Source: Gemmata obscuriglobus (lineage in GTDB: Bacteria; Planctomycetota; Planctomycetia; Gemmatales; Gemmataceae). Taken from it: DNA of 32,000 nucleotides. Below, piece by piece: positions 1 to 15,984 of the stretch. The notes beneath the pieces were generated by a model. The model searched no databases, was not told the DNA's origin, and was given only the letters and a program-made list of their open reading frames with translations. Both the position numbers and the translations under genes were made by a program. The number at the start of each line of letters is the position of its first letter. The first letter of the stretch is position 1. The stretch lies in the NCBI RefSeq assembly GCF_008065095.1, contig NZ_CP042911.1, positions 5,490,001 through 5,522,000 of the forward strand. The letters run 5' to 3'.

Positions 1-244
1 GTCGGAGGCCACCCACCACCCCCACTCGCGGCGACGAGCCGCGCCGACCACCGACCGGTGTTGGCGGAGCGCAACCGACCCGAACCGCCGTATCCCCACC
101 CGCCGCCCGCCACGCCCAACCGCACCTCGCGGCGGTGAGCCGCGCCAGCGACCACCGGCACCACGCGGAGCCCGACCCGCGGGCGTCACCCACGCGGACC
201 ACACGCACACCGCCACCGCACGCGCGCTCCAGAACGCGAGGGTG
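1..244 (-). repeat. ORF-less cassette body (partial; its attC lies off-window)
   Basis: Same C-rich, T-poor sub-repeat family; contains two cgcggcgRYgagccgcg hairpins. Confidence 0.65.
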
Positions 245-335
245 ACCGAACATAAAGCTCACCTGCACCGCCCCCTCCCAGGGAGCGATGCGTCACAAAC
301 TCGCGGGCGGTGTCAGGTGCAGCGCCGGGTTCGGC
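245..335 (-). other. attC site
   Basis: accgaac(variant R')..agctcacctgcaccgcc-loop-ggcggtgTcaggtgCagc..gttcggc. Confidence 0.75.
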
Positions 336-693
336 TCGATGCCCTCGGCGGTTCCGAGGTGGCACGCTCAGCATCGCGGCTCCGCGGAAGCCCGCCCACC
401 GTCGCGGCCGAGCGGAGCACCACCGACCCACCCGCCGTGTCCCGGCCCATTGGAGGCTGGCACCAACCGCACCTGGCGGCGACGAGCCGCGCCAACCACC
501 AGCGGGCGCCACGCGGAGCACCACCGACCCGAACCACCGTGTCCCCACGCGCCGCCGGCCACGCGCACCCGCACCTCGCGGCGGCGAGCCGCGCCAGACA
601 CGACCGGCACCCCGCGGAACCCGACACAAGGGTTTCACCACCGCGGACCACACGCCTCGCACCGCCGCACGCGCACTCATGCACGCGATGGTT
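336..693 (-). repeat. ORF-less cassette body, subfamily 1, 358 nt (2 core hairpins)
   Basis: Sub-repeats of ~101-102 nt; hand count of T is 28/358 on the plus strand; no conserved frame. Confidence 0.65.
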
Positions 694-784
694 GCCGAAC
701 GAACAGCTCACCTGCACCGCCATCATACCGTCAGCGGTGCGTCACAAACCCGATGGCGGTGTCAGGTGCAGCGCCGGGTTCGGC
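694..784 (-). other. attC site
   Basis: gccgaac..agctcacctgcaccgcc-loop-ggcggtgTcaggtgCagc..gttcggc. Confidence 0.8.
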
Positions 785-1143
785 TCGCTCACGTCCGCGG
801 GTCCGGGGCACACGCCGAGCGCTGCGCATCCGCGGAAGCCCGCCCACCGGTGCGGCCACGCGGAGCACCGCCGACCCGGAGCACCGTGTCGCGACACATC
901 GGAGGCCACCCACCCACCGCCACCCGCGGCGATGAGCCGCGCCCGCAACCGATCGGTCTCGGCGGAGCACTACCGACCCGAACCGCCGTGTCCCCACCCG
1001 CACCCCGGCCACGCCCAACCGCACCTCGCGGCGGTGAGCCGCGCCCGCGACCACCGGCACCACGCGGAGCCCGATGCGCGGGGGTCACCGTCGCGGACCA
1101 CACGCCCAGCTCCGCCGCACGCGCATTCATGCACGCTCGGGTT
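785..1143 (-). repeat. ORF-less cassette body, subfamily 1, 359 nt
   Basis: sub-repeat family; near-duplicate of 19363-19721. Confidence 0.65.
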
Positions 1144-1235
1144 GCCGAACATACAGCTCACCTGCACCGCCATCATCGGATGAGCGGTGCGTCGCAATAT
1201 CGCATGGCGGTGTCAGGTGCAGCGCCGGGTTCGGC
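1144..1235 (-). other. attC site
   Basis: canonical arms and R boxes as at 694-784. Confidence 0.8.
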
Positions 1236-1590
1236 TCGCTGACCTCGGCGGTTCCGGGGCACGCGCCCCGCGCCGCGCGTCCGCGGAGCCCGCGGCACCG
1301 GTGCGGCTCTGCGGAGCAGCACCGACCCGACGCGCCGTGTCGCGGCCCACTGGAGGCCACCCACCACCGCCCCTCGCGGCGATGAGCCGCGCCAGCCCCG
1401 ACCCGTATCAGCGAAGCCAACACCGATACGCACTATCGTGTCCCCATGCACCGCTGGCCATGCCCAACCGCACCTCGCGGCGGCGAGCCGCGCCCGCCAC
1501 AGACCGGCACCACGCGGAGCACCACACGCGCCGTTCACCCACGCGGACCACACGCCTACCGCCGCACGCGCACCCCGCGCCCTTCTGGTG
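1236..1590 (-). repeat. ORF-less cassette body, subfamily 1, 355 nt
   Basis: sub-repeat family. Confidence 0.65.
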
Positions 1591-1680
1591 GCCGAACAAT
1601 GAGCTCACCTGCACCGCCTGGGTGACGTGAGCACCACAACTATGGCCGATGGCGGTGTCAGGTGCAGCGCCGGGTTCGGC
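1591..1680 (-). other. attC site
   Basis: canonical arms and R boxes. Confidence 0.8.
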
Positions 1681-1688
1681 CTCGGCCC

Positions 1689-2030
1689 TCACGCGATCAA
1701 CCGGTGCCGTTGGCTCACTATCTGCTCGAACACAGACCAGCCATGCCCCTCGACGAGTCGGGTGAGCGCCTCGGCCGATGTCCGCACGGGATCATAGCGG
1801 ACCTGGACCCACACCACGGTGTACACGCCTCCTGTGACGGCCGCCAACTTGTCCCCATCGCACAGTTCGTCCGCCAACTGGCCACGGCTCTTAATGACCG
1901 TCAGAGAGTACCGAACAGCGTCGCCGTGGGACTCGGCGAACGCTGCGAACAGGAACTCAGCCCCGGCGAGGCTCGCAGCGAGGTCGCCAAGGTTCCGAAC
2001 GTCTACGCAGTTGAGAAGGCCAAGCGCCAT
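1689..2030 (-). CDS. Cassette-encoded hypothetical protein (113 aa)
   Basis: Internal ATG (MALGLLNCVD...) of track ORF 1689..2237. Normal amino-acid composition. GAGGG 7 nt upstream of the ATG. Stop lies 8 nt from the attC at 1591-1680. Confidence 0.6.
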   Translation of the reverse strand: MALGLLNCVDVRNLGDLAASLAGAEFLFAAFAESHGDAVRYSLTVIKSRGQLADELCDGDKLAAVTGGVYTVVWVQVRYDPVRTSAEALTRLVEGHGWSVFEQIVSQRHRLIA

Positions 2031-2046
2031 CCGAAGCCCTCGGTTG

Positions 2047-2199
2047 GCCGAACCAGGAGCTGAGCTGCAAGCCGCCCCTCTCAGGGCGGTCTCCCCTTGC
2101 TCCCGCGACGGCTGGTCAGCTCCAGCGGGGGGTTCGGCCGACGGCCGCCTCCTTCCGCCAGAGGATGAGTGAGCGTTGCAGCTCAGCTCCTGGTTCGGC
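2047..2199 (-). other. Alternative 153-nt palindromic attC-like site (copy 1 of 3)
   Basis: Perfect 24-bp terminal inverted repeat gccgaaccaggagctgagctgcaa / ttgcagctcagctcctggttcggc. It has the same R boxes as the attC sites, and an internal gttcggc at 2132-2138. Confidence 0.5.
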
Positions 2200-2372
2200 C
2201 GCCGCCGGATGAGCTCAGCCCACCGGGGACATCGCACGGCGGGAGATCACCATGCGACCTCAGGCCGCTCGGATCGGCGGGCCCTCGTCGGTCGCCTTCA
2301 CCAGGGGGGAGGTGGCGACAACCTTACGACCGCCCGCCGATCCGCGGCGCTTGCAACCACCTCACGGCGGCG
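2200..2372 (-). repeat. 173-nt ORF-less hairpin cassette body (copy 1 of 3)
   Basis: Closing stem cgccgccg (2200-2207) / cggcggcg (2365-2372). Inner 17-bp stem 2264-2282 / 2332-2348. No ORF conserved beyond the module. Confidence 0.55.
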
Positions 2373-2463
2373 GCCGAACAAATAGCTCACCTGCACCGCC
2401 ACATCCCGAGCAGCGATGCGTCATAAATCAGCGGGCGGTGTCAGGTGCAGCGCCGGGTTCGGC
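2373..2463 (-). other. attC site
   Basis: canonical arms and R boxes. Confidence 0.8.
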
Positions 2464-2921
2464 TCGCTGACCTCTGCGGTTCCGGGGCACGCGCCCCGCA
2501 CCGCGCATCCGCGGAGCCCGGGCCACCGGTGCGGGCAGGCGGAGCACCACCGACCCGAACCGCCGTGTCCCGGCCCACCGAGGGCCGCCCACCACCGCAC
2601 CTCGCGGCGACGAGCCGCGCCGACCACACCCGGGCACTACGCGGAGCACCACCGACACGCACCGCCGTGTCGCGGCTCACTGGAGGCCGCCCACCACCGC
2701 CACTCGCGGCGATGAGCCGCGCCCGTTACCACCGGCACCACGCGGAGCACCACCGACCCGCAATCACCGTGTCCGCACCCGCTCCCGGCCACGCCCACCC
2801 ACCACTCGCGGCGGTGAGCCGCGCCCGTCGCACTCGGGCACCACGCGGAGCCCGACACTCGCCGTTTACCACCGCGGACCACACGTTCAGCGCCGCACGC
2901 GCACTCATGCACGCGATGGTT
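2464..2921 (-). repeat. ORF-less cassette body, subfamily 1, long form 458 nt (3 core hairpins)
   Basis: sub-repeat family with one extra ~101-nt unit. Confidence 0.65.
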
Positions 2922-3034
2922 GCCGAACGATGAAGCTCACCGGCCCGGCCGCGACACCCGCGGCCTGAACGACAAACGGATGAGCACTGAAAAACCGGGC
3001 AGATGGCCGGGTCCGGTGCAGCGCCGGGTTCGGC
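2922..3034 (-). other. attC site (L-stem variant)
   Basis: gctcaccggcccggcc pairs with ggccgggTccggtgCagc: compensated changes, with the same two bulged bases. Confidence 0.75.
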
Positions 3035-3074
3035 GTGACTCTGCTGCACAATCAGTTGCGCGCGACGCCGATAC

Positions 3075-3479
3075 TCACCACTCTCGCCATTCCTCCGTGA
3101 TGTCATGCACGCTCGAAACCAGCCCGGCTCGTTGTGCCGCAGCAATGATTAACTCGCAGAGCTGCTCACGCTGGTCGGTCTCGATGAGAGAGCCATCGCA
3201 TCGGTCGTTCAACTTGTTCAGCTTGATGACCGCCGTCTTCACAGCCTTGAGGATGGCCTCGTTCTTCTTGGTTTCCGGCACTCCCTCCAGCGCGGCAAGC
3301 AACTCATCGACGATCTTTGCACACCTGTCGATGTCGGCCTGCGTGTACCCCGCGTCGAAATCCTCGTCGAAGTCCGGGTCGGCCTCGCTCTCGGCCGCGC
3401 CGAACTTCATGTAACTGACCATGCCGTCAATGGCAGCCTTCCGAAGCCGGAGGAGGTCTTGCTTGGTGGGCTTCGCCAT
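3075..3479 (-). CDS. Cassette-encoded hypothetical acidic protein (134 aa)
   Basis: Track ORF with an ATG start. Balanced, lower-GC composition unlike its surroundings. AGAGGG leader directly after the R' box. Confidence 0.7.
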   Translation of the reverse strand: MAKPTKQDLLRLRKAAIDGMVSYMKFGAAESEADPDFDEDFDAGYTQADIDRCAKIVDELLAALEGVPETKKNEAILKAVKTAVIKLNKLNDRCDGSLIETDQREQLCELIIAAAQRAGLVSSVHDITEEWREW

Positions 3480-3495
3480 CCGTGAACCCTCTTGT

Positions 3496-3586
3496 GCCGA
3501 ACATAAAGCTCACCTGCACCGCCATGATGCAGGCCGCAATGCGTTACAGAGCAGCCGGCGGTGTCAGGTGCAGCGCCGGGTTCGGC
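3496..3586 (-). other. attC site
   Basis: canonical arms and R boxes. Confidence 0.8.
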
Positions 3587-3942
3587 TCAATGCCCTCGGC
3601 GGTTCCGGGCGCGCTCAGTGTCGCGCATCTGCGGATGCCCGCGGCACCGGTGCGGCCGAGCGGAGCACCACCGACCCGCACCACCGTATCCCGACCCATC
3701 GGAGGCCGCCCAACACCGCACCTCGCGGCGATGAGCCGCGCCCACCACCGGCGGGCGCCACGCGGAGCACCACCGACCCGAACCGCCGTGTCCCACGATA
3801 CCACCAGCCACGCCCAACCGCAGCTCGCGGCGATGAGCCGCGCCCGCCCCGACCGGCACCACGCGGAGCACGACGCACGGGGTTCACCCACGCGGACCAT
3901 ACCGTCAGCGCCGCCGCACGGGCGATCATGCACGCGATGGTT
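3587..3942 (-). repeat. ORF-less cassette body, subfamily 1, 356 nt
   Basis: sub-repeat family. Confidence 0.65.
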
Positions 3943-4032
3943 GCCGAACATAAAGCTCACCTGCACCGCCCGTCCCGAGGAGCGATGCGTCACAAGTCAG
4001 CCGGCGGTGTCAGGTGCAGCGCCGGGTTCAGC
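3943..4032 (-). other. attC site
   Basis: canonical arms; R'' variant gttcagc. Confidence 0.75.
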
Positions 4033-4390
4033 TCGCTTACCTCGGCGGTTCCGGGCCTCACGCTGAGCGCCGCGCATCCGCTGTGCGCGTGCCACCAATG
4101 CGAGCGTGCGGAGCACCACCGATCCGACGTACCGTGCCGCGGCCCACCGGAGGCCGGCACCAACCGCCACCCGCGGCGACGAGCCGCGCCAGCCCTGATC
4201 GGCACCACGCGGAGCCCCACCGACTCGCGCCACCGTGTCCCCACTCACTGCCCGCCACGCCCAACCGCACCTCGCGGCGATGAGCCGCGCCGGCCACTCG
4301 CGGGCACCACGCGGAGCCCGACACGCACTGTTCACCTTTGCGGACCATACGTTCAGCGCCGCCGCACGCGCGATCGAGCGCCTTGGGGTT
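4033..4390 (-). repeat. ORF-less cassette body, subfamily 1, 358 nt
   Basis: sub-repeat family; duplicate of 14675-15032. Confidence 0.65.
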
Positions 4391-4481
4391 GCCGAACGTA
4401 AAGCTCACCTGCACCGCCATCACCGGATGAGCGATGCGCTCCTGATCAGCCGGCGGTGTCAGGTGCAGCGCCGGGTTCGGC
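4391..4481 (-). other. attC site
   Basis: canonical arms and R boxes. Confidence 0.8.
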
Positions 4482-4814
4482 TCGCTCACATCCGCGCCGC
4501 GCATCCGCGGATGCCCGCCCACCGGTGCGACCGGGCGGAGCACCACCGAACCACGGCGCCGTGTCCCGACACATCGGGGGCCACCCACCACCGCACCTCG
4601 CGGCGACGAGCCGCGCCGCCCCCCCCCGGGCACCACGCGGAGCGCCACCGACCCGAACCGCCGTGTCCCACGACACCGCCGGCCACGCTCACCGCAAGCT
4701 CGCGGCGACGAGCCGCGCCCGCCACCGCCGGCACCACGCGGAGCACCACACGCGCCGTTCACCCACGCGGACCACACACCCACCGCCGCACGCGCGCTCC
4801 TGCACGCGAGGGCG
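4482..4814 (-). repeat. ORF-less cassette body, subfamily 1 with shortened attC-proximal block, 333 nt
   Basis: sub-repeat family. Confidence 0.65.
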
Positions 4815-4904
4815 GCCGAACAAATAGCTCACCGGCCGCGGTGTGAGCGACACGGTCTACAAACAGCGCATTATACAGCGGTCCGGTGCAGCGCCCGGTT
4901 CGGC
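4815..4904 (-). other. attC site (L-stem variant)
   Basis: gctcaccggccgc pairs with gcggTccggtgCagc. Confidence 0.75.
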
Positions 4905-5234
4905 TTCTGCGCGGGCATGTGCGGTTCCGCGGAGCCCGCGCCCGCGTCGCGGTTCCGCCACCGACACGCGCCACCGGGCCGCGGCACACCGGTGGCCACC
5001 CACCACCGCACCTCGCGGCGGTGAGCCGCGCCACCCACCCACGGGCCACACGCGAAGCCACCACTGACACGCACCACCGTGTCCCCACGCGCTGCCGGCC
5101 ACGCCCACTCGCACCTCGCGGCGGTGAGCCGCGCCCGCACCCACGGGCACCACGCGGAGCCCGACGCGCGCGGTTCACCCACGCGGACCACACGCCCACC
5201 ACCGCCGCACGTGCGCTCACGGCACGCGATGGTA
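4905..5234 (-). repeat. ORF-less cassette body, subfamily 2 (starts ttctgcgc), 330 nt
   Basis: sub-repeat family. Confidence 0.65.
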
Positions 5235-5324
5235 GCCGAACAAACAGCTCACCTGCACCGCCCGTCCCGATGAGCGATGCCTCCCGAATCAGCCGGCGGT
5301 GTCAGGTGCAGCGCCGGGTTCGGC
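5235..5324 (-). other. attC site
   Basis: canonical; identical to 10990-11079. Confidence 0.8.
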
Positions 5325-5661
5325 TTCTGCGCCCACCGTCGCGGTTCCGCGGAGCCCGCGCCCGCGCCGCGCATCCGCGGAGCCACCACCGACCCGCACC
5401 ACCGTGCCGCGGCACACCGGTGGCCGCCCACCACCGACACCCGCGGCGGTGAGCCGCGCCCGCCAACCACGGGCACCACGCGGAGCACCACCGACCCGCA
5501 CCACCGTGTCCCCACCCACACCGGGCCACGACCACCCGCACCTCGCGGCGGCGAGCCGCGCCAACCACCAGCAGGCCACACGCGGAGCCCGACACCCGGG
5601 GTTCACCCACGCGGACCACACGCCCACTACCGCCGCACGCGCGCTCCTGCACGCGATGGTT
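5325..5661 (-). repeat. ORF-less cassette body, subfamily 2, 337 nt
   Basis: sub-repeat family; identical to 11080-11416. Confidence 0.65.
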
Positions 5662-5752
5662 GCCGAACATAAAGCTCACCTGCACCGCCATCACCGGATG
5701 AGCGGTGCGCCCCCAATCAGCCGGCGGTGTCAGGTGCAGCGCCGGGTTCGGC
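5662..5752 (-). other. attC site
   Basis: canonical; same loop as 7571-7661 and 11417-11507. Confidence 0.8.
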
Positions 5753-6213
5753 TCCCTGACCACCGCGGTTCGGGGGCACACGCCGAGCACCGCGGCTCCG
5801 TGGATGCCCGCGGCACCGGTGCGGCCCTGCGGAGCATCACCGACTCCGCGCCCCGTGTCCCGGCCCACCGAGGGCCACCCACCACCGACACCTCGCGGCG
5901 GTGAGCCGCGCCCGCCACCAACGGCGCCACGCGGAGCACCACCGACACGACCCGCCGTGTCCCGGCACACCGGAGGCCACGCCCACCGCCACACGCGGCG
6001 ACGAGCCGCGCCAACCACCCACGGGCACCACGCGGAGCGCCACCGACCCGCACCACCGTGTCCCCACCCGCACCCGGCCACGCCCAACCGCCACTCGCGG
6101 CGGCGAGCCGCGCCAGACACCCACGAGCACCACGCGGAGCCCGGCGCGCGGGCGTCACCCACGCGGACCACACGCCCAGCACCACCGCACGGGCGCTCGC
6201 GCGGCTTTGGGTG
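5753..6213 (-). repeat. ORF-less cassette body, subfamily 1, long form 461 nt
   Basis: sub-repeat family. Confidence 0.65.
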
Positions 6214-6303
6214 GCCGAACGAACAGCTCACCTGCACCGCCAGGATGAAGTGAGCATCACAACTGCGGCCGATGGCGGTGTCAGGTGCAGCGCCGGGTTC
6301 GGC
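6214..6303 (-). other. attC site
   Basis: canonical arms and R boxes. Confidence 0.8.
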
Positions 6304-6638
6304 TTCTGCGCTGGCATGTGCGGTTCCGCGGAGCCCGCGCTTGCACCGCGCATCCGCGGAGCCACCACCGACCCGCACCACCATGCCGCGGCACACCGGG
6401 GGCCACCCACCACGGCACCGCGCGGCGATGAGCCGCGCCGCCCACCGACCGGTATCGGCGGAGCACCACCGATTCGACGCGCCGTGTCCCCACGCGCCTC
6501 CGCCCACGCCCAACCGCACCTCGCGGCGATGAGCCGCGCCAGACACGACCGGCACCACGCGGAGCACCACACGCGAGGTTCACCCATGCGGACCACACGC
6601 TCAGCGCCGCCGCACGCGCGCTCCAGAACGCGAGGGTG
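6304..6638 (-). repeat. ORF-less cassette body, subfamily 2, 335 nt
   Basis: sub-repeat family. Confidence 0.65.
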
Positions 6639-6729
6639 GCCGAACGAACAGCTCACCTGCACCGCCACCACCGGATGAGGGGTGCGTCACAAACCCGCGG
6701 GCGGTGTCAGGTGCAGCGCCGGGTTCGGC
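6639..6729 (-). other. attC site
   Basis: canonical arms and R boxes. Confidence 0.8.
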
Positions 6730-7060
6730 TTCTGCGCTGGCATTTGCGGTTCCGCGGAGCCCGCACCCGCACCGCGCATCCGCGGAGCCACCACCGACAC
6801 GCACCACCGTGCCGCGGCACATCGGGGGCCACCCAACACGGCACCTCGCGGCGATGAGCCGCGCCGACCACCGACCGGTCTCGGCGGAGCGCCACCGACC
6901 CGAACGGCCGTGTCCCCACGCGCCCCCGGCCACGCCCAACCGCAACTCGCGGCGGTGAGCCGCGCCAACCACCGACCGGCAGCACGCGGAGCCACCACCG
7001 TCTGGTGCCCCGCGGACCACACGCACGCGCGCCGCACGCGCACTCATGCACGCGAGGGTG
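6730..7060 (-). repeat. ORF-less cassette body, subfamily 2, 331 nt
   Basis: sub-repeat family. Confidence 0.65.
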
Positions 7061-7151
7061 GCCGAACATACAGCTCACCGGCCGCGGGACCACGCGACAC
7101 GGTCGGGAAAGTACGTATTTGACCGCGGTCCGGTGCAGCGCCGGGTTCGGC
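7061..7151 (-). other. attC site (L-stem variant)
   Basis: gctcaccggccgcgg pairs with ccgcggTccggtgCagc. Confidence 0.75.
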
Positions 7152-7278
7152 TTCTTCGCTCACCGTCGCGCATCTGCGTAGCCCGCGCCCGCATGGCGCA
7201 TCCGCAGCGACCGCGCCCACCGCCGCGCATCCGCGGAGCGGGACCGGCACGCCGGTGTGAGTCCCCGGCCATAATAAC

Positions 7279-7545
7279 TCAGCCGCTCGGAGCAGCGAAT
7301 GCACAGGTCCCACCCACCCTGACCTCGGCCACATCCGTGAGCGCGAAGTTCATGAACGCCCCAACCGGGATGGAACCCGCCGCGACAGTCAGGATCTCGG
7401 CAATGACATCGCCGCCGGCATCCGCGTGAGCCGTCGAGATGACCCGCACCCCATACGCCTCGCCGTCGTAGAAGCGGATCACTGCATCCGCGGATGAGCG
7501 ATCTAACTCGTGCAGGAGAGATAAGAGGTTGCCGTCTATCGCCAC
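7279..7545 (-). CDS. Cassette-encoded hypothetical protein (88 aa, GTG start)
   Basis: Track ORF with GGAGG 7 nt upstream of the GTG. A 127-nt remnant of a subfamily-2 ORF-less block (7152-7278) follows it. Confidence 0.5.
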   Translation of the reverse strand: MAIDGNLLSLLHELDRSSADAVIRFYDGEAYGVRVISTAHADAGGDVIAEILTVAAGSIPVGAFMNFALTDVAEVRVGGTCAFAAPSG

Positions 7546-7570
7546 CTTCGCGCCTCCGTCTCCTTCTGCC

Positions 7571-7661
7571 GCCGAACATAAAGCTCACCTGCACCGCCAT
7601 CACCGGATGAGCGGTGCGCCCCCAATCAGCCGGCGGTGTCAGGTGCAGCGCCGGGTTCGGC
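7571..7661 (-). other. attC site
   Basis: canonical; contains the stop codon of the SUKH ORF. Confidence 0.8.
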
Positions 7662-8075
7662 GTTTGGGGATAACCCGGCGGCCAGGAACGCGGGGAACGA
7701 AGGGGCCATCTCGTGGATGCCGCCAAAGTCGTGATCCTCGACCAGCACTCGCCCGGACGAGAGCTCGATGCCGAACGGGTTGCCGCCGCCATCCCAACCG
7801 ATGATGAACACTCCTCGCATGTGCCAGAACTCGTTGTCCGCTCGGAACTGGCGGTGCGAATCGGCCAACTCGGGCAGCCCGTCGATCCACTCGCCGTCAC
7901 CGCCCACGCGCCCGCCGCACACCGTCAGGTACTCGCGGAACGCTGGCGGGATCGTCCCGAACTCGACCTCGAACGCCCGCAGGTCGCCCTCGGCGGCCGG
8001 CGGGTGGCGTTCCTCCTCAGGGCAGGCGTGCCACGCCGCGACAAGGAGTTGCCGCAGTCGCTCGTTCACATGCAA
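7626..8075 (-). CDS. SMI1/KNR4 (SUKH-1) family protein, copy 1 of 3
   Basis: Motifs IPPAFREYLTVCGG and FIIGWDGGGNPFGIE are typical of SMI1_KNR4. The start is TTG at 8075, or more likely GTG at 8069 (GAGGG 7 nt upstream). The stop lies inside the attC loop. Confidence 0.8.
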   Translation of the reverse strand: MHVNERLRQLLVAAWHACPEEERHPPAAEGDLRAFEVEFGTIPPAFREYLTVCGGRVGGDGEWIDGLPELADSHRQFRADNEFWHMRGVFIIGWDGGGNPFGIELSSGRVLVEDHDFGGIHEMAPSFPAFLAAGLSPNAEPGAAPDTAG

Positions 8076-8085
8076 GCCCTCTGTG

Positions 8086-8176
8086 GCCGAACATAAAGCT
8101 CACCTGCACCGCCATCATCGGATGAGCGGTGCGTTCCGGATCAGCCGGCGGTGTCAGGTGCAGCGCCGGGTTCGGC
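8086..8176 (-). other. attC site
   Basis: canonical arms and R boxes. Confidence 0.8.
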
Positions 8177-8531
8177 TCGCTGACCTCGGCGGTTCCGGGC
8201 GACCCGCCTCGCACCGCGGCTCCGCAGAGCCCGGGCCACCGGTGCGGGCGTGCGGAGCACCGACCCGATGCGCCGTGTCGCGGCACACCGGAGGCCGCGT
8301 ACCACCGCCACACGCGGCGACGAGCCGCGCCCGCCACCGGCGGGCGCCACGCGGAGCACCACCGATCCGAACCGCCGTGTCCCCATGCGCGGCTGGCCGC
8401 GCCCAACCGCACCTCGCGGCGACGAGCCGCGACCGCTACCCACGGCACCACGCGGAGCACCACACGCACGGTTCACCCACGCGGACCACACGCCTCGCAC
8501 CGCCGCCCGCGTGTTCCTGAACGCCCGGGTG
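8177..8531 (-). repeat. ORF-less cassette body, subfamily 1, 355 nt
   Basis: sub-repeat family; hairpin spacing here is 102 nt. Confidence 0.6.
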
Positions 8532-8622
8532 GCCGAACATAAAGCTCACCTGCACTGCCAGGATCGAGTGAGCAACACAACGCAGATCAGATGGCGGTGT
8601 CAGGTGCAGCGCCGGGTTCGGC
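8532..8622 (-). other. attC site
   Basis: canonical, with one mismatch in arm A (ctgcactgcc). Confidence 0.8.
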
Positions 8623-8627
8623 GCGCT

Positions 8628-9077
8628 TTAACCCCACATTACTTTTTCTGGCAGCAAGCCGGGCTGGTTGAAGATGATCCAGAACGAGTGCGCATTCATC
8701 AGGTCGCCCGTGCCATAACCCACCTCGGCCACGTCACCTTTGAAGTGGACGCATTCCAATTGGAGCTGCTCTCGGAACAATTCCGGGTTGGTGATGGACG
8801 ATCTTAACTCCTCAGCCCATTCTGTCCGCTCCCACCAAGAGTACATCCGATCTACTACGAGTTTCAGCATTGTGGGCTCGTTCTCGCAGATCCACGCGAC
8901 GTGCCCTCGAATCGTTTCGAACTCGACGCCGGACATCGGCACCGCCTGATCGGTGGGGAAGATGTACCCCATCACACGCCGCCCACCAAATGCCCCGACA
9001 CGAAATCTCCACCACCGCCATTCCTCATCCCAGAGGACCGGCCCGAGCGTTCCGTCGCGGATCAGGCTATCGTCCAC
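8628..9077 (-). CDS. Cassette-encoded hypothetical protein (149 aa, GTG start)
   Basis: Track ORF with a Trp/Glu-rich normal composition, a GAGG leader, and a stop 6 nt from the attC. Confidence 0.65.
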   Translation of the reverse strand: MDDSLIRDGTLGPVLWDEEWRWWRFRVGAFGGRRVMGYIFPTDQAVPMSGVEFETIRGHVAWICENEPTMLKLVVDRMYSWWERTEWAEELRSSITNPELFREQLQLECVHFKGDVAEVGYGTGDLMNAHSFWIIFNQPGLLPEKVMWG

Positions 9078-9091
9078 GCTTACCTCGGGCG

Positions 9092-9181
9092 GCCGAACAA
9101 TGAGCTCACCTGCACCGCCCGTCTCGATGAGCAGTGCGTTCCGAATCAGCCGGCGGTGTCAGGTGCAGCGCCGGGTTCGGC
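9092..9181 (-). other. attC site
   Basis: canonical arms and R boxes. Confidence 0.8.
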
Positions 9182-9565
9182 GGCTTCGCGCTGGGAGTCT
9201 GGACTGAACCGACTGCCTCCCGCCCACCACTCACGGAACTGAGGCGGTACAACGTTGGGCGGTTGACCGGAGGCGGCTCCCGGGCACGGTGCTTGGTTCT
9301 GAACCACGATGATACCCACGGCGCGAAAGGAGAGGAACTCCGTCGTGGCCCAGTTCCGGGATGACCGAAAGATGCCCGCCTGTCTGGTGACCCAGACTTG
9401 AACGCTCGGACCGCCCAACCCGTTCCACCGCAACCCACGCCCGACCGCGGGCGGTTCGTCAAACACTTGACACTCGTTGGGCTCCAGGCCCAGTGCCACC
9501 AGCACTTCGCCGACCGTTCGCCCGACGAGCAAACCACAGTCTCGGGTCAGGAGGTGTTTCGACAT
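9146..9565 (-). CDS. Cassette-encoded hypothetical protein (139 aa)
   Basis: Internal ATG (MSKHLLTRDC...) of track ORF 9146..9619, which otherwise begins inside the upstream attC. AGAGGGG leader. Reads through the attC arm (tail AEPGAAPDTAG). Confidence 0.55.
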   Translation of the reverse strand: MSKHLLTRDCGLLVGRTVGEVLVALGLEPNECQVFDEPPAVGRGLRWNGLGGPSVQVWVTRQAGIFRSSRNWATTEFLSFRAVGIIVVQNQAPCPGAASGQPPNVVPPQFREWWAGGSRFSPDSQREAAEPGAAPDTAG

Positions 9566-9586
9566 TCGCCGCGCGCCCCTCTGGTT

Positions 9587-9677
9587 GCCGAACAACAAGC
9601 TCACCTGCACCGCCATCATCGGACGAGCGGTGCGTCACAATACAGCGGGCGGTGTCAGGTGCAGCGCCGGGTTCGGC
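9587..9677 (-). other. attC site
   Basis: canonical arms and R boxes. Confidence 0.8.
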
Positions 9678-10036
9678 TCGCTGCCGTCCGCGGTTCCGGG
9701 CGACACGCTCCGCGCCGCGCATCCGCGGAGCCCGGGCCACCGGTGCGACCGGGCGGAGCACCACCGACTCCGCGCGCCGTGTCCCGGCCCACCGGAGGCC
9801 ACCCACCACCGCCACACGCGGCGGTGAGCCGCGCCGACCACCGGCGGGCGCCACGCGGAGCACCACCGACCCGCACCACCGTGTCCCTATCCGCACCGGG
9901 CCGCGCCCACCCGCACCTCGCGGCGACGAGCCGCGCCAGACCCAACCGGCACCACGCGAAGCCCCACTGCACCGTCTCACGCGCCGCGGACCACACGCAC
10001 ACCGCCGCCGCACGCGTGATCGAGCGCCTCGGGGTG
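9678..10036 (-). repeat. ORF-less cassette body, subfamily 1, 359 nt
   Basis: sub-repeat family. Confidence 0.65.
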
Positions 10037-10127
10037 GCCGAACAATGAGCTCACCTGCAACGCCATCACCGGATCAGCGGTGCGCCCCAAGTCAGATGGC
10101 GGTGTCAGGTGCAGCGCCGGGTTCGGC
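10037..10127 (-). other. attC site
   Basis: canonical arms and R boxes. Confidence 0.8.
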
Positions 10128-10485
10128 TCGCTCACGTCCGCGGTTCCGGGGCACACGCCCCACGCCGCGCATCCGCGGAGCCCGCCCACCGGTGCGGCCG
10201 AGCGGAGCCACCACCGACCCCACGCGCCGTGTCGCGGCACGCCGGAGGCCACCCACCACCGCACTTCGCGGCGACGAGCCGCGCCCGCCCTGACGCGCAC
10301 CACGCGGAGCACCACCGACCCGACCCGCCGTGTCCCCACGCACCGCCAGCCGCGCTCAACCGCACCTCGCGGCGGCGAGCCGCGCCAGACCCGACCGGCA
10401 CCACGCGGAGCCCGACACGCGAGATTCACTCACGCGGACCACACGCACACCACCGCCGCACGCGCGCTCCTGCACGCTCGGGCGT
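10128..10485 (-). repeat. ORF-less cassette body, subfamily 1, 358 nt
   Basis: sub-repeat family. Confidence 0.65.
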
Positions 10486-10576
10486 GCCGAACAACAAGCT
10501 CACCTGCACCGCCATCACACGATGAGCGATGCGTCCCAAGTCCGATGGCGGTGTCAGGTGCAGCGCCGGGTTCGGC
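10486..10576 (-). other. attC site
   Basis: canonical arms and R boxes. Confidence 0.8.
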
Positions 10577-10596
10577 GTCTTGGCGCTGCCAATCAC

Positions 10597-10977
10597 CTAC
10601 CCGTCCCAGCCTGTGCCGGCCCGATCGCGAATCCAGCCGTCCAACACCTCCAGGGCAGACGCCTGGGCTGAGTCGGCCACGCCCCACGGAGGGATGGGGC
10701 CGGGGTTGGGCAGGCCCATGCCGCTCGGCGGCCAATGCCACCCTCCGCCCGCGATCCGGCAGCCGGTCAGCCGCCCGGACAAGCCGGCCATGAGTGCCTG
10801 AGGAACGGCGTCCAACGCCTCTACCACCGACGGCAGATCGGTGGGAAAGTCCAGCACCGCGAAGGCAAACCGATCCAGCAGCCAGCCGCTTGTCTCGGTC
10901 GCGGTCACCACCTCGCGCTCCCACAGGCTCACACGCCGCGCCACGTCCGACTTCAGCGTTGCGAGAGGAAACAGCAT
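10597..10977 (-). CDS. Cassette-encoded hypothetical protein (126 aa)
   Basis: Internal ATG (MLFPLATLKS...) of track ORF 10597..11013, with GGAGG 5 nt upstream. Confidence 0.55.
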   Translation of the reverse strand: MLFPLATLKSDVARRVSLWEREVVTATETSGWLLDRFAFAVLDFPTDLPSVVEALDAVPQALMAGLSGRLTGCRIAGGGWHWPPSGMGLPNPGPIPPWGVADSAQASALEVLDGWIRDRAGTGWDG

Positions 10978-10989
10978 CGCGCCTCCGCC

Positions 10990-11079
10990 GCCGAACAAAC
11001 AGCTCACCTGCACCGCCCGTCCCGATGAGCGATGCCTCCCGAATCAGCCGGCGGTGTCAGGTGCAGCGCCGGGTTCGGC
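10990..11079 (-). other. attC site
   Basis: canonical; identical to 5235-5324. Confidence 0.8.
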
Positions 11080-11416
11080 TTCTGCGCCCACCGTCGCGGT
11101 TCCGCGGAGCCCGCGCCCGCGCCGCGCATCCGCGGAGCCACCACCGACCCGCACCACCGTGCCGCGGCACACCGGTGGCCGCCCACCACCGACACCCGCG
11201 GCGGTGAGCCGCGCCCGCCAACCACGGGCACCACGCGGAGCACCACCGACCCGCACCACCGTGTCCCCACCCACACCGGGCCACGACCACCCGCACCTCG
11301 CGGCGGCGAGCCGCGCCAACCACCAGCAGGCCACACGCGGAGCCCGACACCCGGGGTTCACCCACGCGGACCACACGCCCACTACCGCCGCACGCGCGCT
11401 CCTGCACGCGATGGTT
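11080..11416 (-). repeat. ORF-less cassette body, subfamily 2, 337 nt
   Basis: identical to 5325-5661. Confidence 0.65.
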
Positions 11417-11507
11417 GCCGAACATAAAGCTCACCTGCACCGCCATCACCGGATGAGCGGTGCGCCCCCAATCAGCCGGCGGTGTCAGGTGCAGCGCCGG
11501 GTTCGGC
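11417..11507 (-). other. attC site
   Basis: canonical; identical to 7571-7661. Confidence 0.8.
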
Positions 11508-11921
11508 GTTTGGGGATAACCCGGCGGCCAGGAACGCGGGGAACGAAGGGGCCATCTCGTGGATGCCGCCAAAGTCGTGATCCTCGACCAGCACTCGCCC
11601 GGACGAGAGCTCGATGCCGAACGGGTTGCCGCCGCCATCCCAACCGATGATGAACACTCCTCGCATGTGCCAGAACTCGTTGTCCGCTCGGAACTGGCGG
11701 TGCGAATCGGCCAACTCGGGCAGCCCGTCGATCCACTCGCCGTCACCGCCCACGCGCCCGCCGCACACCGTCAGGTACTCGCGGAACGCTGGCGGGATCG
11801 TCCCGAACTCGACCTCGAACGCCCGCAGGTCGCCCTCGGCGGCCGGCGGGTGGCGTTCCTCCTCAGGGCAGGCGTGCCACGCCGCGACAAGGAGTTGCCG
11901 CAGTCGCTCGTTCACATGCAA
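11472..11921 (-). CDS. SMI1/KNR4 (SUKH-1) family protein, copy 2 of 3
   Basis: All overlapping track ORFs translate identically to those at 7626-8096. Confidence 0.8.
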   Translation of the reverse strand: MHVNERLRQLLVAAWHACPEEERHPPAAEGDLRAFEVEFGTIPPAFREYLTVCGGRVGGDGEWIDGLPELADSHRQFRADNEFWHMRGVFIIGWDGGGNPFGIELSSGRVLVEDHDFGGIHEMAPSFPAFLAAGLSPNAEPGAAPDTAG

Positions 11922-11931
11922 GCCCTCTGTG

Positions 11932-12022
11932 GCCGAACATAAAGCTCACCTGCACCGCCATCATCGGACAAGCGATGCGTTCCAGATCAGCGGGCGGTGT
12001 CAGGTGCAGCGCCGGGTTCGGC
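11932..12022 (-). other. attC site
   Basis: canonical arms and R boxes. Confidence 0.8.
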
Positions 12023-12052
12023 TTGCCTTCGGGCACTGTGACTCCGTAAGCA

Positions 12053-12421
12053 TCAAGTGGAACCGGACAACTCGGCGTGGGTCAGCACCCACGGGCACTC
12101 CATGCTCGCGTCGTGACGGAGCGTGAGCCGGTATGGGCCGCCGGGCAACGTGTCGCTCTCGGTCGTGCGCTCGGCGGTTGCGACCACGAAGCCGTCGCCG
12201 ACTTCGACGACGCGCCCCGTGAGGATGGCCCATCCCCCGTCCTCTGTCCACACCTGCACCTTGACGCGGTGCCGCACGGCCGGCGGTTCGCCTGGCAGTA
12301 GCCACTCGCCGCGCTGCTCGGGGCGCACTTGGAGGATGTGGGCGACGAGGTCGTCCCTATGGAACCCCTCGACGATTCCGCACGCCATCGTTGGGGGTGG
12401 GTCGGCATCAACGTCGCTCAT
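12053..12421 (-). CDS. Cassette-encoded hypothetical protein (122 aa), paralog of 12939..13310
   Basis: ATG start with GAGG 6 nt upstream. Shares the block GIVEGFHRDDLVA...VKVQVWTEDGGWAILTGRVVEVGDG with the neighbouring cassette. Confidence 0.7.
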   Translation of the reverse strand: MSDVDADPPPTMACGIVEGFHRDDLVAHILQVRPEQRGEWLLPGEPPAVRHRVKVQVWTEDGGWAILTGRVVEVGDGFVVATAERTTESDTLPGGPYRLTLRHDASMECPWVLTHAELSGST

Positions 12422-12472
12422 GGACGACCTCAGGAAGCGAAATCTGCCGGTTCACTCCCGCAGGCTTCCGCC

Positions 12473-12563
12473 GCCGAACAATGAGCTCACCTGCACCGCC
12501 ATCACCGGATGAGCGGTGCGTCCCAAGTCCGATGGCGGTGTCAGGTGCAGCGCTGGGTTCGGC
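12473..12563 (-). other. attC site
   Basis: canonical arms (spacer gctgg). Confidence 0.8.
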
Positions 12564-12819
12564 TCGATGCCCTCGGCGTTTCCGGGTTGCACGCCGAGCG
12601 CCGCGCCTCCGCGGAGCCCGCGGCACCGGTGCGTGCGGGCGGAGCATCACCGCCTCGATGCGCCGTGTCGCGGCCCACCGAGGGCCACCCACCACTGCAC
12701 CTCGCGGCGATGAGCCGCGCCAGCACCGACCGGCACCAGGCGGAGCCCGACACACGGGTTTCACCACCGCGGGCCACACGCCTACTGCCGCCGCACGCGC
12801 GCTCCTGCGACCTCGGGTT
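12564..12819 (-). repeat. ORF-less cassette body, subfamily 1, short form 256 nt (1 core hairpin)
   Basis: sub-repeat family lacking one ~101-nt unit. Confidence 0.65.
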
Positions 12820-12910
12820 GCCGAACATAAAGCTCACCTGCACCGCCATCATCGGATGAGCGATGCGCTCCGAATCAGCCGGCGGTGTCAGGTGCAGCGC
12901 CGGGTTCGGC
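12820..12910 (-). other. attC site
   Basis: canonical arms and R boxes. Confidence 0.8.
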
Positions 12911-12938
12911 GTGCCTTTACTCCCGGCGACGACGAACA

Positions 12939-13310
12939 TCAGGGGAAACTGGACAGCTCGGCATGGGTCAGCACCCAGGAGCACTCCATCCGTGCATCGT
13001 GACGGAGCGTGAGCCGGTACGGGCCGCCCGGCAACGCGTCCTCGTCGTCGGTGGTGCGTTCGGCGGTCGCCACCACGACGCCGTCGCCGACCTCGACCAC
13101 GCGCCCCGTCAGGATGGCCCATCCGCCGTCCTCCGTCCACACCTGGACCTTGACGCGGTGCCGCACGGCCGGCGGCTCGTCCGAGAGCAGCCACTCGCCG
13201 CGCTGCTCGGGGCGCCGCTGCAGGATGGGGGCGACGAGGTCGTCCCGGTGGAACCCCTCCACGATCCCGCAGCACATAGCTGGGTGATTGCCGGGAGCCG
13301 CATCGCTCAT
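12939..13310 (-). CDS. Cassette-encoded hypothetical protein (123 aa), paralog of 12053..12421
   Basis: Internal ATG (MSDAAPGNHP...) of track ORF 12939..13712, with GGAGG 7 nt upstream. Confidence 0.7.
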   Translation of the reverse strand: MSDAAPGNHPAMCCGIVEGFHRDDLVAPILQRRPEQRGEWLLSDEPPAVRHRVKVQVWTEDGGWAILTGRVVEVGDGVVVATAERTTDDEDALPGGPYRLTLRHDARMECSWVLTHAELSSFP

Positions 13311-13342
13311 GGACGAGCCTCCGCTGATGTCTGCCTTCCGCC

Positions 13343-13433
13343 GCCGAACATAAAGCTCACCTGCACCGCCATGATGCAAGCCGCAATGCGTTACAGAGCA
13401 GCGGGCGGTGTCAGGTGCAGCGCCGGGTTCGGC
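13343..13433 (-). other. attC site
   Basis: canonical arms and R boxes. Confidence 0.8.
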
Positions 13434-13789
13434 TCGCTCACGTCCGCGGTTCCGGGTCACGCGCCGAGCGATGCGGCTCCGCGGAGCCCGGGCCACCGGT
13501 GCGACCCGGCGGAGCACCACCGGCTCCCCGCGCCGTGTCCCGGCACACCGAGGGCCACCCACCACCGCACCTCGCGGCGATGAGCCGCGCCCACCACCCA
13601 CGGGCACCACGCGGAGCACCACCGACCCGAACCACCGTGTCCCACGATACCACCAGCCACGCTCACCGCAAGCTCGCGGCGACGAGCCGCGCCCGTCGCA
13701 CTCGGGCACCACGCGGAGCCCGACACGTAGGGTTCACCCACGCGGACCACACGCACACCGCCGCACGCGCGATCCAGAACGCGAGGGTG
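13434..13789 (-). repeat. ORF-less cassette body, subfamily 1, 356 nt
   Basis: sub-repeat family; its 5' boundary joins the alternative attC-like site. Confidence 0.65.
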
Positions 13790-13942
13790 GCCGAACCAGG
13801 AGCTGAGCTGCAAGCCGCCCCTCTCAGGGCGGTCTCCCCTTGCTCCCGCGACGGCTGGTCAGCTCCAGCGGGGGGTTCGGCCGACGGCCGCCTCCTTCCG
13901 CCAGAGGATGAGTGAGCGTTGCAGCTCAGCTCCTGGTTCGGC
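13790..13942 (-). other. Alternative 153-nt palindromic attC-like site (copy 2 of 3)
   Basis: same 24-bp terminal inverted repeat as 2047-2199. Confidence 0.5.
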
Positions 13943-14115
13943 CGCCGCCGGATGAGCTCAGCCCACCGGGGACATCGCACGGCGGGAGATCACCATGCGA
14001 CCTCAGGCCGCTCGGATCGGCGGGCCCTCGTCGGTCGCCTTCACCAGGGGGGAGGTGGCGACAACCTTACGACCGCCCGCCGATCCGCGGCGCTTGCAAC
14101 CACCTCACGGCGGCG
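13943..14115 (-). repeat. 173-nt ORF-less hairpin cassette body (copy 2 of 3)
   Basis: same sequence as 2200-2372. Confidence 0.55.
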
Positions 14116-14206
14116 GCCGAACGAACAGCTCACCTGCACCGCCACCATCGGATGAGCGATGCGTTCCAAATTAGCCGGCGGTGTCAGGTGCAGCGCCGGG
14201 TTCGGC
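14116..14206 (-). other. attC site
   Basis: canonical arms and R boxes. Confidence 0.8.
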
Positions 14207-14210
14207 GCGG

Positions 14211-14567
14211 CTATACTACCCGGTCGGGCGACTCGCTACCTGGTTCGGCGTCTTGCGGCCGGGGCACGCGGTAGAGGCGTGTCCCAGGGGTGATCGGAAA
14301 ATCGGCCCACCCTCGCACCAGTACTCCAACCTCGTCGCCCCGGCGCACCTCATCTAGGGTCTGCATCCACCGCTCGATTGCAACCGCGACGCCCCGGCAG
14401 ATCAGGCGGTCTGCCACCGCGACGACACGATCGCCGACCCGCAGCACCTCGCACTCGACGCGGCCGACGAGGATGGTGCCCTTCGCCCGCATCACGTGCT
14501 CGGCAGTGAGGATCAATTCCGCCCCGGCGGGTAACTGGTCACAGGGGCCGATCACCGCCTCGCCCAC
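14211..14567 (-). CDS. Stand-alone EF-Tu domain-II-like (GTP_EFTU_D2) beta-barrel protein (118 aa, GTG start)
   Basis: GTILVGRVECEVLRVGDRVVAV...IERWMQTLDEVRRGDEVGVLVRG aligns by eye to EF-Tu [22 protein letters not shown]...[23 protein letters not shown]. Confidence 0.7.
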   Translation of the reverse strand: MGEAVIGPCDQLPAGAELILTAEHVMRAKGTILVGRVECEVLRVGDRVVAVADRLICRGVAVAIERWMQTLDEVRRGDEVGVLVRGWADFPITPGTRLYRVPRPQDAEPGSESPDRVV

Positions 14568-14583
14568 CGTGCGCCCTCGGGTG

Positions 14584-14674
14584 GCCGAACAGAAAGCTCA
14601 CCTGCACCGCCATGATACAGTGAGCGGTGCGTCCCGAATCAGATGGCGGTGTCAGGTGCAGCGCCGGGTTCGGC
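14584..14674 (-). other. attC site
   Basis: canonical arms and R boxes. Confidence 0.8.
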
Positions 14675-15032
14675 TCGCTTACCTCGGCGGTTCCGGGCCT
14701 CACGCTGAGCGCCGCGCATCCGCTGTGCGCGTGCCACCAATGCGAGCGTGCGGAGCACCACCGATCCGACGTACCGTGCCGCGGCCCACCGGAGGCCGGC
14801 ACCAACCGCCACCCGCGGCGACGAGCCGCGCCAGCCCTGATCGGCACCACGCGGAGCCCCACCGACTCGCGCCACCGTGTCCCCACTCACTGCCCGCCAC
14901 GCCCAACCGCACCTCGCGGCGATGAGCCGCGCCGGCCACTCGCGGGCACCACGCGGAGCCCGACACGCACTGTTCACCTTTGCGGACCATACGTTCAGCG
15001 CCGCCGCACGCGCGATCGAGCGCCTTGGGGTT
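14675..15032 (-). repeat. ORF-less cassette body, subfamily 1, 358 nt
   Basis: duplicate of 4033-4390. Confidence 0.65.
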
Positions 15033-15123
15033 GCCGAACATAAAGCTCACCTGCACCGCCCTCACCGGATGAGCGGTGCGTCCCGAATCAGCCGGCGGTG
15101 TCAGGTGCAGCGCCGGGTTCGGC
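15033..15123 (-). other. attC site
   Basis: canonical; contains the stop of SUKH copy 3. Confidence 0.8.
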
Positions 15124-15537
15124 GTTTGGGGATAACCCGGCGGCCAGGAACGCGGGGAACGAAGGGGCCATCTCGTGGATGCCGCCAAAGTCGTGATCCT
15201 CGACCAGCACTCGCCCGGACGAGAGCTCGATGCCGAACGGGTTGCCGCCGCCATCCCAACCGATGATGAACACTCCTCGCATGTGCCAGAACTCGTTGTC
15301 CGCTCGGAACTGGCGGTGCGAATCGGCCAACTCGGGCAGCCCGTCGATCCACTCGCCGTCACCGCCCACGCGCCCGCCGCACACCGTCAGGTACTCGCGG
15401 AACGCTGGCGGGATCGTCCCGAACTCGACCTCGAACGCCCGCAGGTCGCCCTCGGCGGCCGGCGGGTGGCGTTCCTCCTCAGGGCAGGCGTGCCACGCCG
15501 CGACAAGGAGTTGCCGCAGTCGCTCGTTCACATGCAA
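15088..15537 (-). CDS. SMI1/KNR4 (SUKH-1) family protein, copy 3 of 3
   Basis: Translations are identical to copies 1 and 2 in all frames. Confidence 0.8.
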   Translation of the reverse strand: MHVNERLRQLLVAAWHACPEEERHPPAAEGDLRAFEVEFGTIPPAFREYLTVCGGRVGGDGEWIDGLPELADSHRQFRADNEFWHMRGVFIIGWDGGGNPFGIELSSGRVLVEDHDFGGIHEMAPSFPAFLAAGLSPNAEPGAAPDTAG

Positions 15538-15547
15538 GCCCTCTGTG

Positions 15548-15638
15548 GCCGAACATAAAGCTCACCTGCACCGCCATCATCGGATCAGCAGTGCGTCACA
15601 ATGCAGCGGGCGGTGTCAGGTGCAGCGCCGGGTTCGGC
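15548..15638 (-). other. attC site
   Basis: canonical arms and R boxes. Confidence 0.8.
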
Positions 15639-15893: not shown

Positions 15894-15984
15894 GCCGAAC
15901 GAACAGCTCACCTGCACCGCCATCACCGGATGAGCGGTGCGTCACAAATCAGCGGGCGGTGTCAGGTGCAGCGCCGGGTTCGGC
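15894..15984 (-). other. attC site
   Basis: canonical arms and R boxes. Confidence 0.8.

Follow-up and report, generated by a model that had tools for sequence, protein, structure and literature searches.

A family of non-coding integron cassettes in Gemmata obscuriglobus shows an intense asymmetry of base composition between its two DNA strands, and this asymmetry is probably a built-in, inherited property of this one Gemmata cassette family, which neither stems from replication or an array-wide mutational bias nor has any connection with translation. The stretch of DNA that was analysed, here called the window, comprises 32,000 nucleotides (nt) of the forward strand, positions 5,490,001 to 5,522,000 of contig NZ_CP042911.1 (RefSeq assembly GCF_008065095.1), which is the single contig of a genome of 9.0 Mb with 67% G+C. 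The window harbours part of a large cassette array, whose attC sites possess the inverted R''/L'' and L'/R' boxes of integron cassettes. Using a 91-nt attC model, which was trained on the window's own sites and searched by nhmmer, 42 attC sites in a single orientation were found at genome positions 5489273-5510585, and about 390 sites (390 by the model) in the genome as a whole, where they are distributed among five large arrays and several small ones. The sense strand of the cassettes is the minus one, as judged by the strand of their open reading frames (ORFs), 90 of which lie on the minus strand with a gene-like G+C content at the third codon position (GC3) and 14 on the opposite strand, by the direction of the integrase and, more indirectly, by the extra T and C of the attC sites, which sit in the 3' arm on the plus strand. 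The array and the cassette in which the asymmetry was noticed consist of the following elements:

1..20585, minus strand (cassette sense strand): integron cassette array, which extends beyond the window's first base; no integrase within the window
245..335, minus strand: attC of body 336-693 in sense-strand reading, from the attC alignment and model
336..693, minus strand: two-unit family body of this cassette (A61 C162 G107 T28), with two unit matches
513..613, minus strand: repeat unit of about 102 nt, the interval of the first-pass annotation (A17 C52 G29 T3)
412..512, minus strand: second repeat unit of the same cassette, 76% identical to 513-613
577..593, no strand assigned: invariant hairpin of unit 513-613, from a motif match
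475..491, no strand assigned: hairpin of the second unit, a motif match with one mismatch
694..784, minus strand: attC at the sense-upstream boundary of the cassette, from the attC alignment and model

The base counts that the first-pass annotation had made by hand for unit 513-613 and for body 336-693 (28 T in 358 nt) are exact, and the minus strand of these intervals consists of only 3-8% A. Across the family, the bodies have a median G+C content of 0.767, a GC skew of -0.215, an AT skew of +0.368 and 7.2% T on the plus strand, whereas the corresponding medians of the other cassettes are 0.679, -0.083, +0.053 and 15% (Mann-Whitney p about 1e-48 to 1e-52 for each measure). The pyrimidines of the sense strand take no part in this difference, with T accounting for a share of 0.347 in the family and 0.353 in other cassettes, while the share of A among the sense-strand purines is 0.133 in the family and 0.304 elsewhere. 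The excess of G over C, the excess of T over A and the raised G+C content of 76% are therefore facets of one shift, by which the purines of the sense strand have become almost all G. How strongly A is depleted varies with the preceding base: 7-fold if it is T, 2.4-fold if it is C, 2.1-fold if it is G and not at all if it is A. The dinucleotide TT, too, is depleted 4-fold on the sense strand of the family.

This composition is confined to the family. In 100-kb windows of the genome, the skews stay within about 0.05, and relative to the orientation of the cassettes, the family skew points in one direction in all five large arrays, which lie in both orientations and on both replichores (the cumulative genome skew has its maximum near 4.2 Mb and its minimum near 8.9 Mb). 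A replication bias was rejected on these grounds. An array-wide mutational bias was likewise rejected, since four-fold sites, flanks and the other ORF-less cassettes lack the skew: the four-fold sites of the 90 sense-coded cassettes have a GC3 skew of +0.08 and an AT3 skew of -0.04 (+0.08 and -0.11 in the genes of the genome), the non-coding flanks of these cassettes have skews of +0.10 and +0.09, and ORF-less cassettes outside the family show ordinary skew only. The first-pass annotation had proposed that the skew belongs to the family and not to the genome or to replication, and had named equal skew in the coding cassettes and the flanking chromosome as the observation that would speak against this; no such equality was found, and the proposal holds for coding cassettes, four-fold sites, non-coding flanks and flanking chromosome alike. 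The sense-strand composition of family members in three other Gemmata genomes is similar, with 6-9% A, 29-33% C, 44-49% G and 14-17% T.

Family-like skew was found in only 9 of 244 non-family bodies, none of which matches the family model. Six of the nine encode small hydrophobic, probably membrane, proteins (genome positions 1964634, 2672355, 7349789, 7354332 and 7976808, and window 17368-17824), and their excess of T over A results from hydrophobic codons. For both reasons, the mismatch with the family model and the small hydrophobic proteins that most of them encode, the nine outliers were discarded as independent skewed ORF-less families. A 313-nt ORF-less cassette with 77% G+C and family-like skew at genome positions 7350696-7351008, located in a small array of minus orientation, does not match the family model either; it could be an independent skewed non-coding cassette.

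The family accounts for 126 of the 370 cassette bodies in the genome, none of its members being among the 55 cassettes of the small arrays, and its bodies contain no protein-coding gene. A family cassette is composed of a leader of about 90 nt, one to four tandem units of about 102 nt (usually two, which results in a body of about 356 nt), a tail of about 95 nt and an ordinary attC. Units of 102 nt are the most frequent (70 copies), followed by those of 101 nt (56), 103 nt (23) and 100 nt (13), and body lengths vary by single bases (355, 356, 358, 359 nt). Unit 513-613 has 81 matches in the genome, all of which lie within cassette arrays; across the genome, every unit lies within 1.5 kb of an attC, and searches at the DNA level and in translation found no homologue outside the arrays. 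About 45% of the unit columns are nearly invariant, conservation being concentrated in invariant blocks of about 20 nt, and each unit contains one invariant hairpin of 6 bp of GC pairs with a 5-nt loop (CGCGGC-GRYGA-GCCGCG on the plus strand). This motif has 57 matches in the window compared to 0.02 expected, and its columns have near-zero entropy. Relatives of the family are present in three other Gemmata genomes; weak unit matches in two further genomes were rejected as chance matches of GC-rich sequence, as neither locus possesses an attC or a unit. Within the arrays, family cassettes are placed almost randomly, with no association with sense- or antisense-coded neighbours. The remaining family bodies of the window are:

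1..244, minus strand: family body truncated by the window start, with hairpins at 27-43 and 128-144; TRF period of 449 from base 2
785..1143, minus strand: family body, 2 units
1236..1590, minus strand: family body, 2 units
2464..2921, minus strand: family body, 3 units
3587..3942, minus strand: family body, 2 units
4033..4390, minus strand: family body, 2 units
4482..5234, minus strand: family body, 4 units
5325..5661, minus strand: family body, 2 units
5753..6213, minus strand: family body, 3 units
6304..6638, minus strand: family body, 2 units
6730..7570, minus strand: composite interval, 2 units and other sequence
8177..8531, minus strand: family body, 2 units
9678..10036, minus strand: family body, 2 units
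10128..10485, minus strand: family body, 2 units
11080..11416, minus strand: family body, 2 units
12564..12819, minus strand: family body, 1 unit
13434..14115, minus strand: composite interval, 2 units and other sequence
14675..15032, minus strand: family body, 2 units
15639..15893, minus strand: family body, 1 unit
15985..16355, minus strand: family body, 2 units
16446..16804, minus strand: family body, 2 units
17917..18272, minus strand: family body, 2 units
18364..18725, minus strand: family body, 2 units
18817..19271, minus strand: family body, 3 units
19363..20047, minus strand: composite interval, 2 units and other sequence
20139..20494, minus strand: family body, 2 units

The copies of the family are mosaic. 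Mean pairwise identity per segment amounts to 0.76-0.83, and how similar two copies are in one of the four segments (leader, unit A, unit B, tail) says little about their identity in the others (r 0.01-0.24); in 34 pairs of copies, identity reaches 97% or more in one segment but does not exceed 82% in another. The substitution process within the family was therefore followed by tree-free tests based on rare derived variants in columns in which one base makes up 90% or more; among these variants, C>T and G>A occur at nearly the same rate (4.9 and 4.4 per 1000 sites). When all columns are considered, C>T and G>A derived alleles have an incidence of 0.50 and 0.56 per column, respectively, and a summed frequency of 0.042 each; their frequency spectra are alike (p 0.85), and the same is true for T>C and A>G. 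Within the family, there is thus no visible sign of a strand-biased transition process or of selection against A on the sense strand. As columns with a G majority far outnumber those with an A majority (160 and 16), the flux from G to A exceeds the reverse flux (89 G>A and 10 A>G derived alleles), thereby diluting the skew. On these grounds, the founder unit would already have been skewed; the skew would have persisted by the constancy of nearly half of the columns together with the exchange of segments among copies, and the flux from G to A would slowly be diluting it.

Several points limit the reading of a purely inherited asymmetry. The first spectrum, obtained by FastTree and parsimony, suggested that transitions are symmetric and transversions asymmetric, with A gaining on balance, but any tree of mosaic copies is compromised, and this spectrum serves as an indication only, for which the tree-free tests were substituted. 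Transversions are strand-asymmetric on the sense strand, with G>T exceeding C>A about 2-3 fold and T>A being rarer than A>T. Some strand-specific force, either mutational or selective, may still be at work, and guanine oxidation in GG context is one idea for the source of the transversion asymmetry. T>G also exceeds A>C on the sense strand of the family. Finally, the variable columns of the unit are still poor in A (8%, compared to 28% T), which can be explained by inheritance, the T-majority columns being the variable ones, although selection against A is also possible.

The closest known counterpart of this composition are the GRINS (2021, PMC8256042), repeats of polyketide synthase (PKS) genes that are subject to gene conversion and whose GC and TA skews are both intense and correlated. 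In that study, GRINS are repeats that exceed 500 bp in length, share over 80% identity and lie within protein-coding genes, those for PKS among them; their mean absolute GC and TA skews exceed 0.15 when measured in 150-nt windows, and the two skews are correlated with an r of 0.70. Measured in the same way, windows of the Gemmata family have a mean absolute GC skew of 0.216 and a mean absolute TA skew of 0.432 with an r of 0.73, whereas r is 0.11 in the flank. The family thus shares with GRINS the occurrence of repeats in a high-G+C bacterium, the intensity and positive correlation of both skews, and a mosaic structure of the copies as gene conversion would give it. The family bodies, however, are 335-460 nt long, non-coding, carried by integron cassettes and typically 76-83% identical, and since they thereby fall outside the length and the coding context of GRINS, the Gemmata family is GRINS-like and not GRINS. 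By analogy with the GRINS repeats of polyketide synthase genes, the skew itself would most likely be a passive attribute. As to what the family is, the likeliest reading is that it acts as a nucleic-acid element that is recognised via its invariant blocks and hairpin, a proposal to which we nevertheless assign somewhat less than an even chance; the putative recognised form would more likely be the sense transcript or single-stranded DNA than duplex DNA.

Unlike a passive attribute, the skew could be the function itself, which we consider unlikely but more credible than any of the explanations discussed further below. Untranslated cassettes would let sense transcription pass and would stop antisense transcription via Rho, so that the family would constitute a composition-coded one-way transcription valve: the G-rich sense RNA would offer neither stretches with more C than G for Rho nor U-tracts, and the C-rich antisense RNA would be a nearly continuous Rho-loading substrate. 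Rho utilisation (rut) sites are C-rich and G-poor, and 78-nt windows with more C than G make up 1.8% of the sense RNA and 97% of the antisense RNA of the family, compared to 25% and 70% in other cassettes; this measure, however, merely restates the GC skew. In favour of the valve, the four-fold scarcity of TT applies to the sense strand, and a terminator scan revealed no terminator-like sites in the family cassettes. The accompanying promoter scan likewise gave no sigma-70-like site in the 20 kb scanned, planctomycete promoters lying outside its scope. The genome further contains three Rho-like genes, the polarity of the family is constant relative to integrase and cassette direction in all arrays, and a requirement at the level of composition would fit the lack of a conserved fold. 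Nevertheless, a transcriptional valve explains neither the invariant blocks nor why A instead of C is depleted, the identical G>A and C>T spectra reveal no selection on composition, and family cassettes are not enriched beside antisense-coded cassettes (7 of 15, compared to a background of 40%). In addition, inhibition of Rho changed nothing in the gene-less cassettes of Vibrio (Blanco et al. 2024, PMC11014356). The three Rho-like paralogues, an unusual number, are located at genome positions 3921532, 6751409 and 8708326 and match TIGR00767 with 655, 620 and 455 bits. Were the valve to exist, it would keep an integron of several hundred cassettes readable. Even more speculative is the idea that the pure A-to-G shift among the purines of the founder records an adenine-specific editing of an RNA or a single-stranded intermediate at the birth of the cassette, which is suggested by the unchanged pyrimidine ratio and the 7-fold depletion of A after T.

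It is quite improbable that the G-rich sense strand acts via an RNA fold, G-quadruplexes or R-loops, or that the C-rich bottom strand aids the folding of attC. The first-pass annotation had suggested that G-rich, A-poor RNA or C-rich, T-poor single-stranded DNA of the bottom strand might matter for recombination. The sense RNA is indeed far more stable than the antisense RNA in absolute terms (-207 and -151 kcal/mol), because G pairs with both C and U, and each unit contains the invariant hairpin; single-sequence folds, however, are no more stable than those of shuffled sequences (z -0.5 for sense, 0.04 for antisense). A fold of the alignment of 52 diverse copies, compared to column shuffles, gave z values of -2.2 for sense and -4.1 for antisense and contained little beyond the invariant hairpins, and no match was found in Rfam, so that there is neither a conserved fold with covariation nor a described RNA family. 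A G-cluster rule for R-loops is satisfied on the sense strand by 45 of 90 bodies and on the antisense strand by none, but also by 86 of 90 shuffles, and the mean G4Hunter score is 0.44 for the family and 0.60 for shuffles; clustering of G-runs therefore lies below, and not above, the expectation from composition. With DNA parameters, the family bodies are more structured, not less, and the pairing probability of attC in its context is not raised (0.375 in the family and 0.458 in the others, p 0.5), which gives no in silico benefit for attC folding. Polar motifs of the Chi or KOPS type were also considered and dismissed, since the orientation of the family is inconsistent with replication direction and the Chi octamer of Escherichia coli occurs only 14 times in 116 bodies.

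Ongoing strand-biased mutation, whether caused by replication, by deamination coupled to transcription or by the exposure of single strands in excised cassette circles, is very improbable as the source of the skew. Transcription-associated asymmetry is known to lead to an excess of G+T on the non-template strand, to which the sense strand of the family conforms, and the 2-3 fold excess of G>T over C>A also fits such a process. The same family skew is, however, found in arrays on both replichores and is absent from neighbouring cassettes, four-fold sites and flanks; the rates of C>T and G>A, and likewise those of T>C and A>G, are equal, and deamination of the excised bottom strand predicts a skew of the opposite sign.

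An even poorer case can be made for the model of the first-pass annotation, according to which the skew evolved to delete stop codons, so that ribosomes arriving from upstream traverse the ORF-less cassettes and melt attC hairpins. Stop codons are 2.25-fold rarer in the family than in other cassettes (6.8 and 15.3 per 1000 codons), and the long open frames to which the annotation had pointed do exist, reaching 661 codons and spanning several attC sites:

17865..19847, plus strand: longest stop-free frame, 661 codons from stop to stop, which crosses four attC sites; a by-product, not a gene
5302..6579, minus strand: stop-free frame from stop to stop, 426 codons, over three family cassettes; a by-product

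The absence of stops from all six frames is correct for unit 513-613, but it also occurs in 39% of the mononucleotide shuffles of this unit and in 16% of unskewed sequences of equal G+C content, and it does not extend to whole bodies: all six frames are open in only 43 of the 121 distinct units and in none of the 90 distinct bodies. In body 336-693, five frames are open and the sixth, a minus frame, contains 3 stops; the commonest number of open frames per body is 3 of 6, and one sense frame contains 1.75 stops per body. The 462 stops observed in the family are close to the 481 expected from dinucleotide shuffles, compared to 725 from mononucleotide shuffles. In an analytic calculation, the expected stop density falls from 21.9 to 12.6 per 1000 codons as G+C content rises from 0.677 to 0.76, whereas the skew at fixed G+C hardly shifts it, from 12.6 to 9.8 on the plus strand and not at all (12.6) on the minus strand. 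The statement that the skew fully explains the long ORFs was thus overstated, as G+C content lowers the stop density more and dinucleotide content accounts for the rest; what produces the long overlapping ORFs, as a statistical side effect, is the 76% G+C and the dinucleotide content, with the skew as a minor contributor. Moreover, 62% of sense frames run into a stop inside a family body and 86% before the end of attC, which leaves only 38% open through the body and 14% through body and attC, and as unit length varies by 1-2 nt, no frame is kept. A ribosome would usually terminate within a family cassette, and read-through to the next attC therefore does not follow. A repeat protein as the product of the family, rich in Pro/Thr/Arg if read from the plus strand or in Gly/Val/Arg if read from the minus strand, can practically be dismissed: the modal unit of 102 nt equals 34 codons and several frames are open, but units of 101, 103 and 100 nt are common and bodies measure 355, 356, 358 and 359 nt, so that length preserves no frame, the column entropy of the unit has no period-3 signal, G+C by codon phase is flat (0.82, 0.82 and 0.74), unlike in genes of this genome, the invariant blocks are 20-nt runs with no codon pattern, Pfam has no match to any of the five open frames of 336-693, and no translated homologue exists elsewhere in the genome.

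The platform on which the skewed family resides resembles known integrons. The single IntI of the genome (TIGR02249, 427 bits with a cut-off of 265; genome positions 1377432-1378373) is located at the end of another array than that of the window, is followed by an attI-like region and the first cassette, and lies on the same strand as the cassettes, into which it points (inverted type). It is 98% identical to the integrase of Gemmata algarum JC673, in whose genome the attI-like segment is duplicated. Both in this genome and in G. algarum, the skewed family supplies the cassette that adjoins the attI-like region, an arrangement that suggests recent integrase-mediated insertion, although this is statistically not significant. 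The array of the window is CALIN-like, because no integrase is present; it thus compares with the CALIN arrays and the inverted-integrase chromosomal integrons described by Cury et al. (2016, PMC4889954) in having attC sites and no integrase, as does the genome in having its one IntI adjoin another array co-directionally with the cassettes. This comparison, however, describes the platform only and leaves the skewed family unexplained.

Gene-less cassettes of sedentary chromosomal integrons have been described in Vibrio (PMC11014356) and in oral metagenomes (PMC6557892), and the Gemmata family resembles them in its ordinary attC bounds, its large chromosomal array, the lack of a gene and the many paralogous copies. 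The gene-less cassettes of Vibrio are AT-rich and mostly bear promoters, which that study reports to be unpredictable in silico. In contrast, the Gemmata family has 76% G+C and no sigma-70-like site, consists of tandem units of about 102 nt with invariant blocks and an intense purine bias between A and G, and makes up a third of the cassettes of its genome. A search of the literature retrieved no paper on Gemmata integrons within the library covered.

Parts of the array may have been duplicated segmentally, as some cassettes of the window recur with equal length and composition: a non-family cassette of 424 nt is present in triplicate (7662-8085, 11508-11931 and 15124-15547), and the family cassettes at 5325-5661 and 11080-11416 form a matching pair. 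A cluster of IS-type transposase genes (window 20984-24821) marks the end of the array; its genes and two from the chromosomal flank are:

20984-22033: helix-turn-helix (HTH_33/HTH_32) protein
21969-23441: UPF0236-like ORF, weak match
23937-24821: IS66-family DDE transposase, N-terminal part missing (profile 27-283 of 284)
28261-29619 and 29708-30748, minus strand: Ser/Thr protein kinase and aldose 1-epimerase, both ordinary-looking genes of the chromosomal flank

For the annotation of such genomes, this analysis means that ORFs of 100-660 codons called over these arrays are artefacts, and that a third of the supposed gene cassettes in this very large set of arrays, with its roughly 390 attC sites, contain no gene. 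With regard to GRINS, the family would be a non-coding, mobile example, in which case the process that writes or keeps such skews would not depend on coding sequence. For the biology of integrons, an abundant, conserved and mosaic non-coding family that is common to several Gemmata species calls for an undescribed function or a selfish dynamic.

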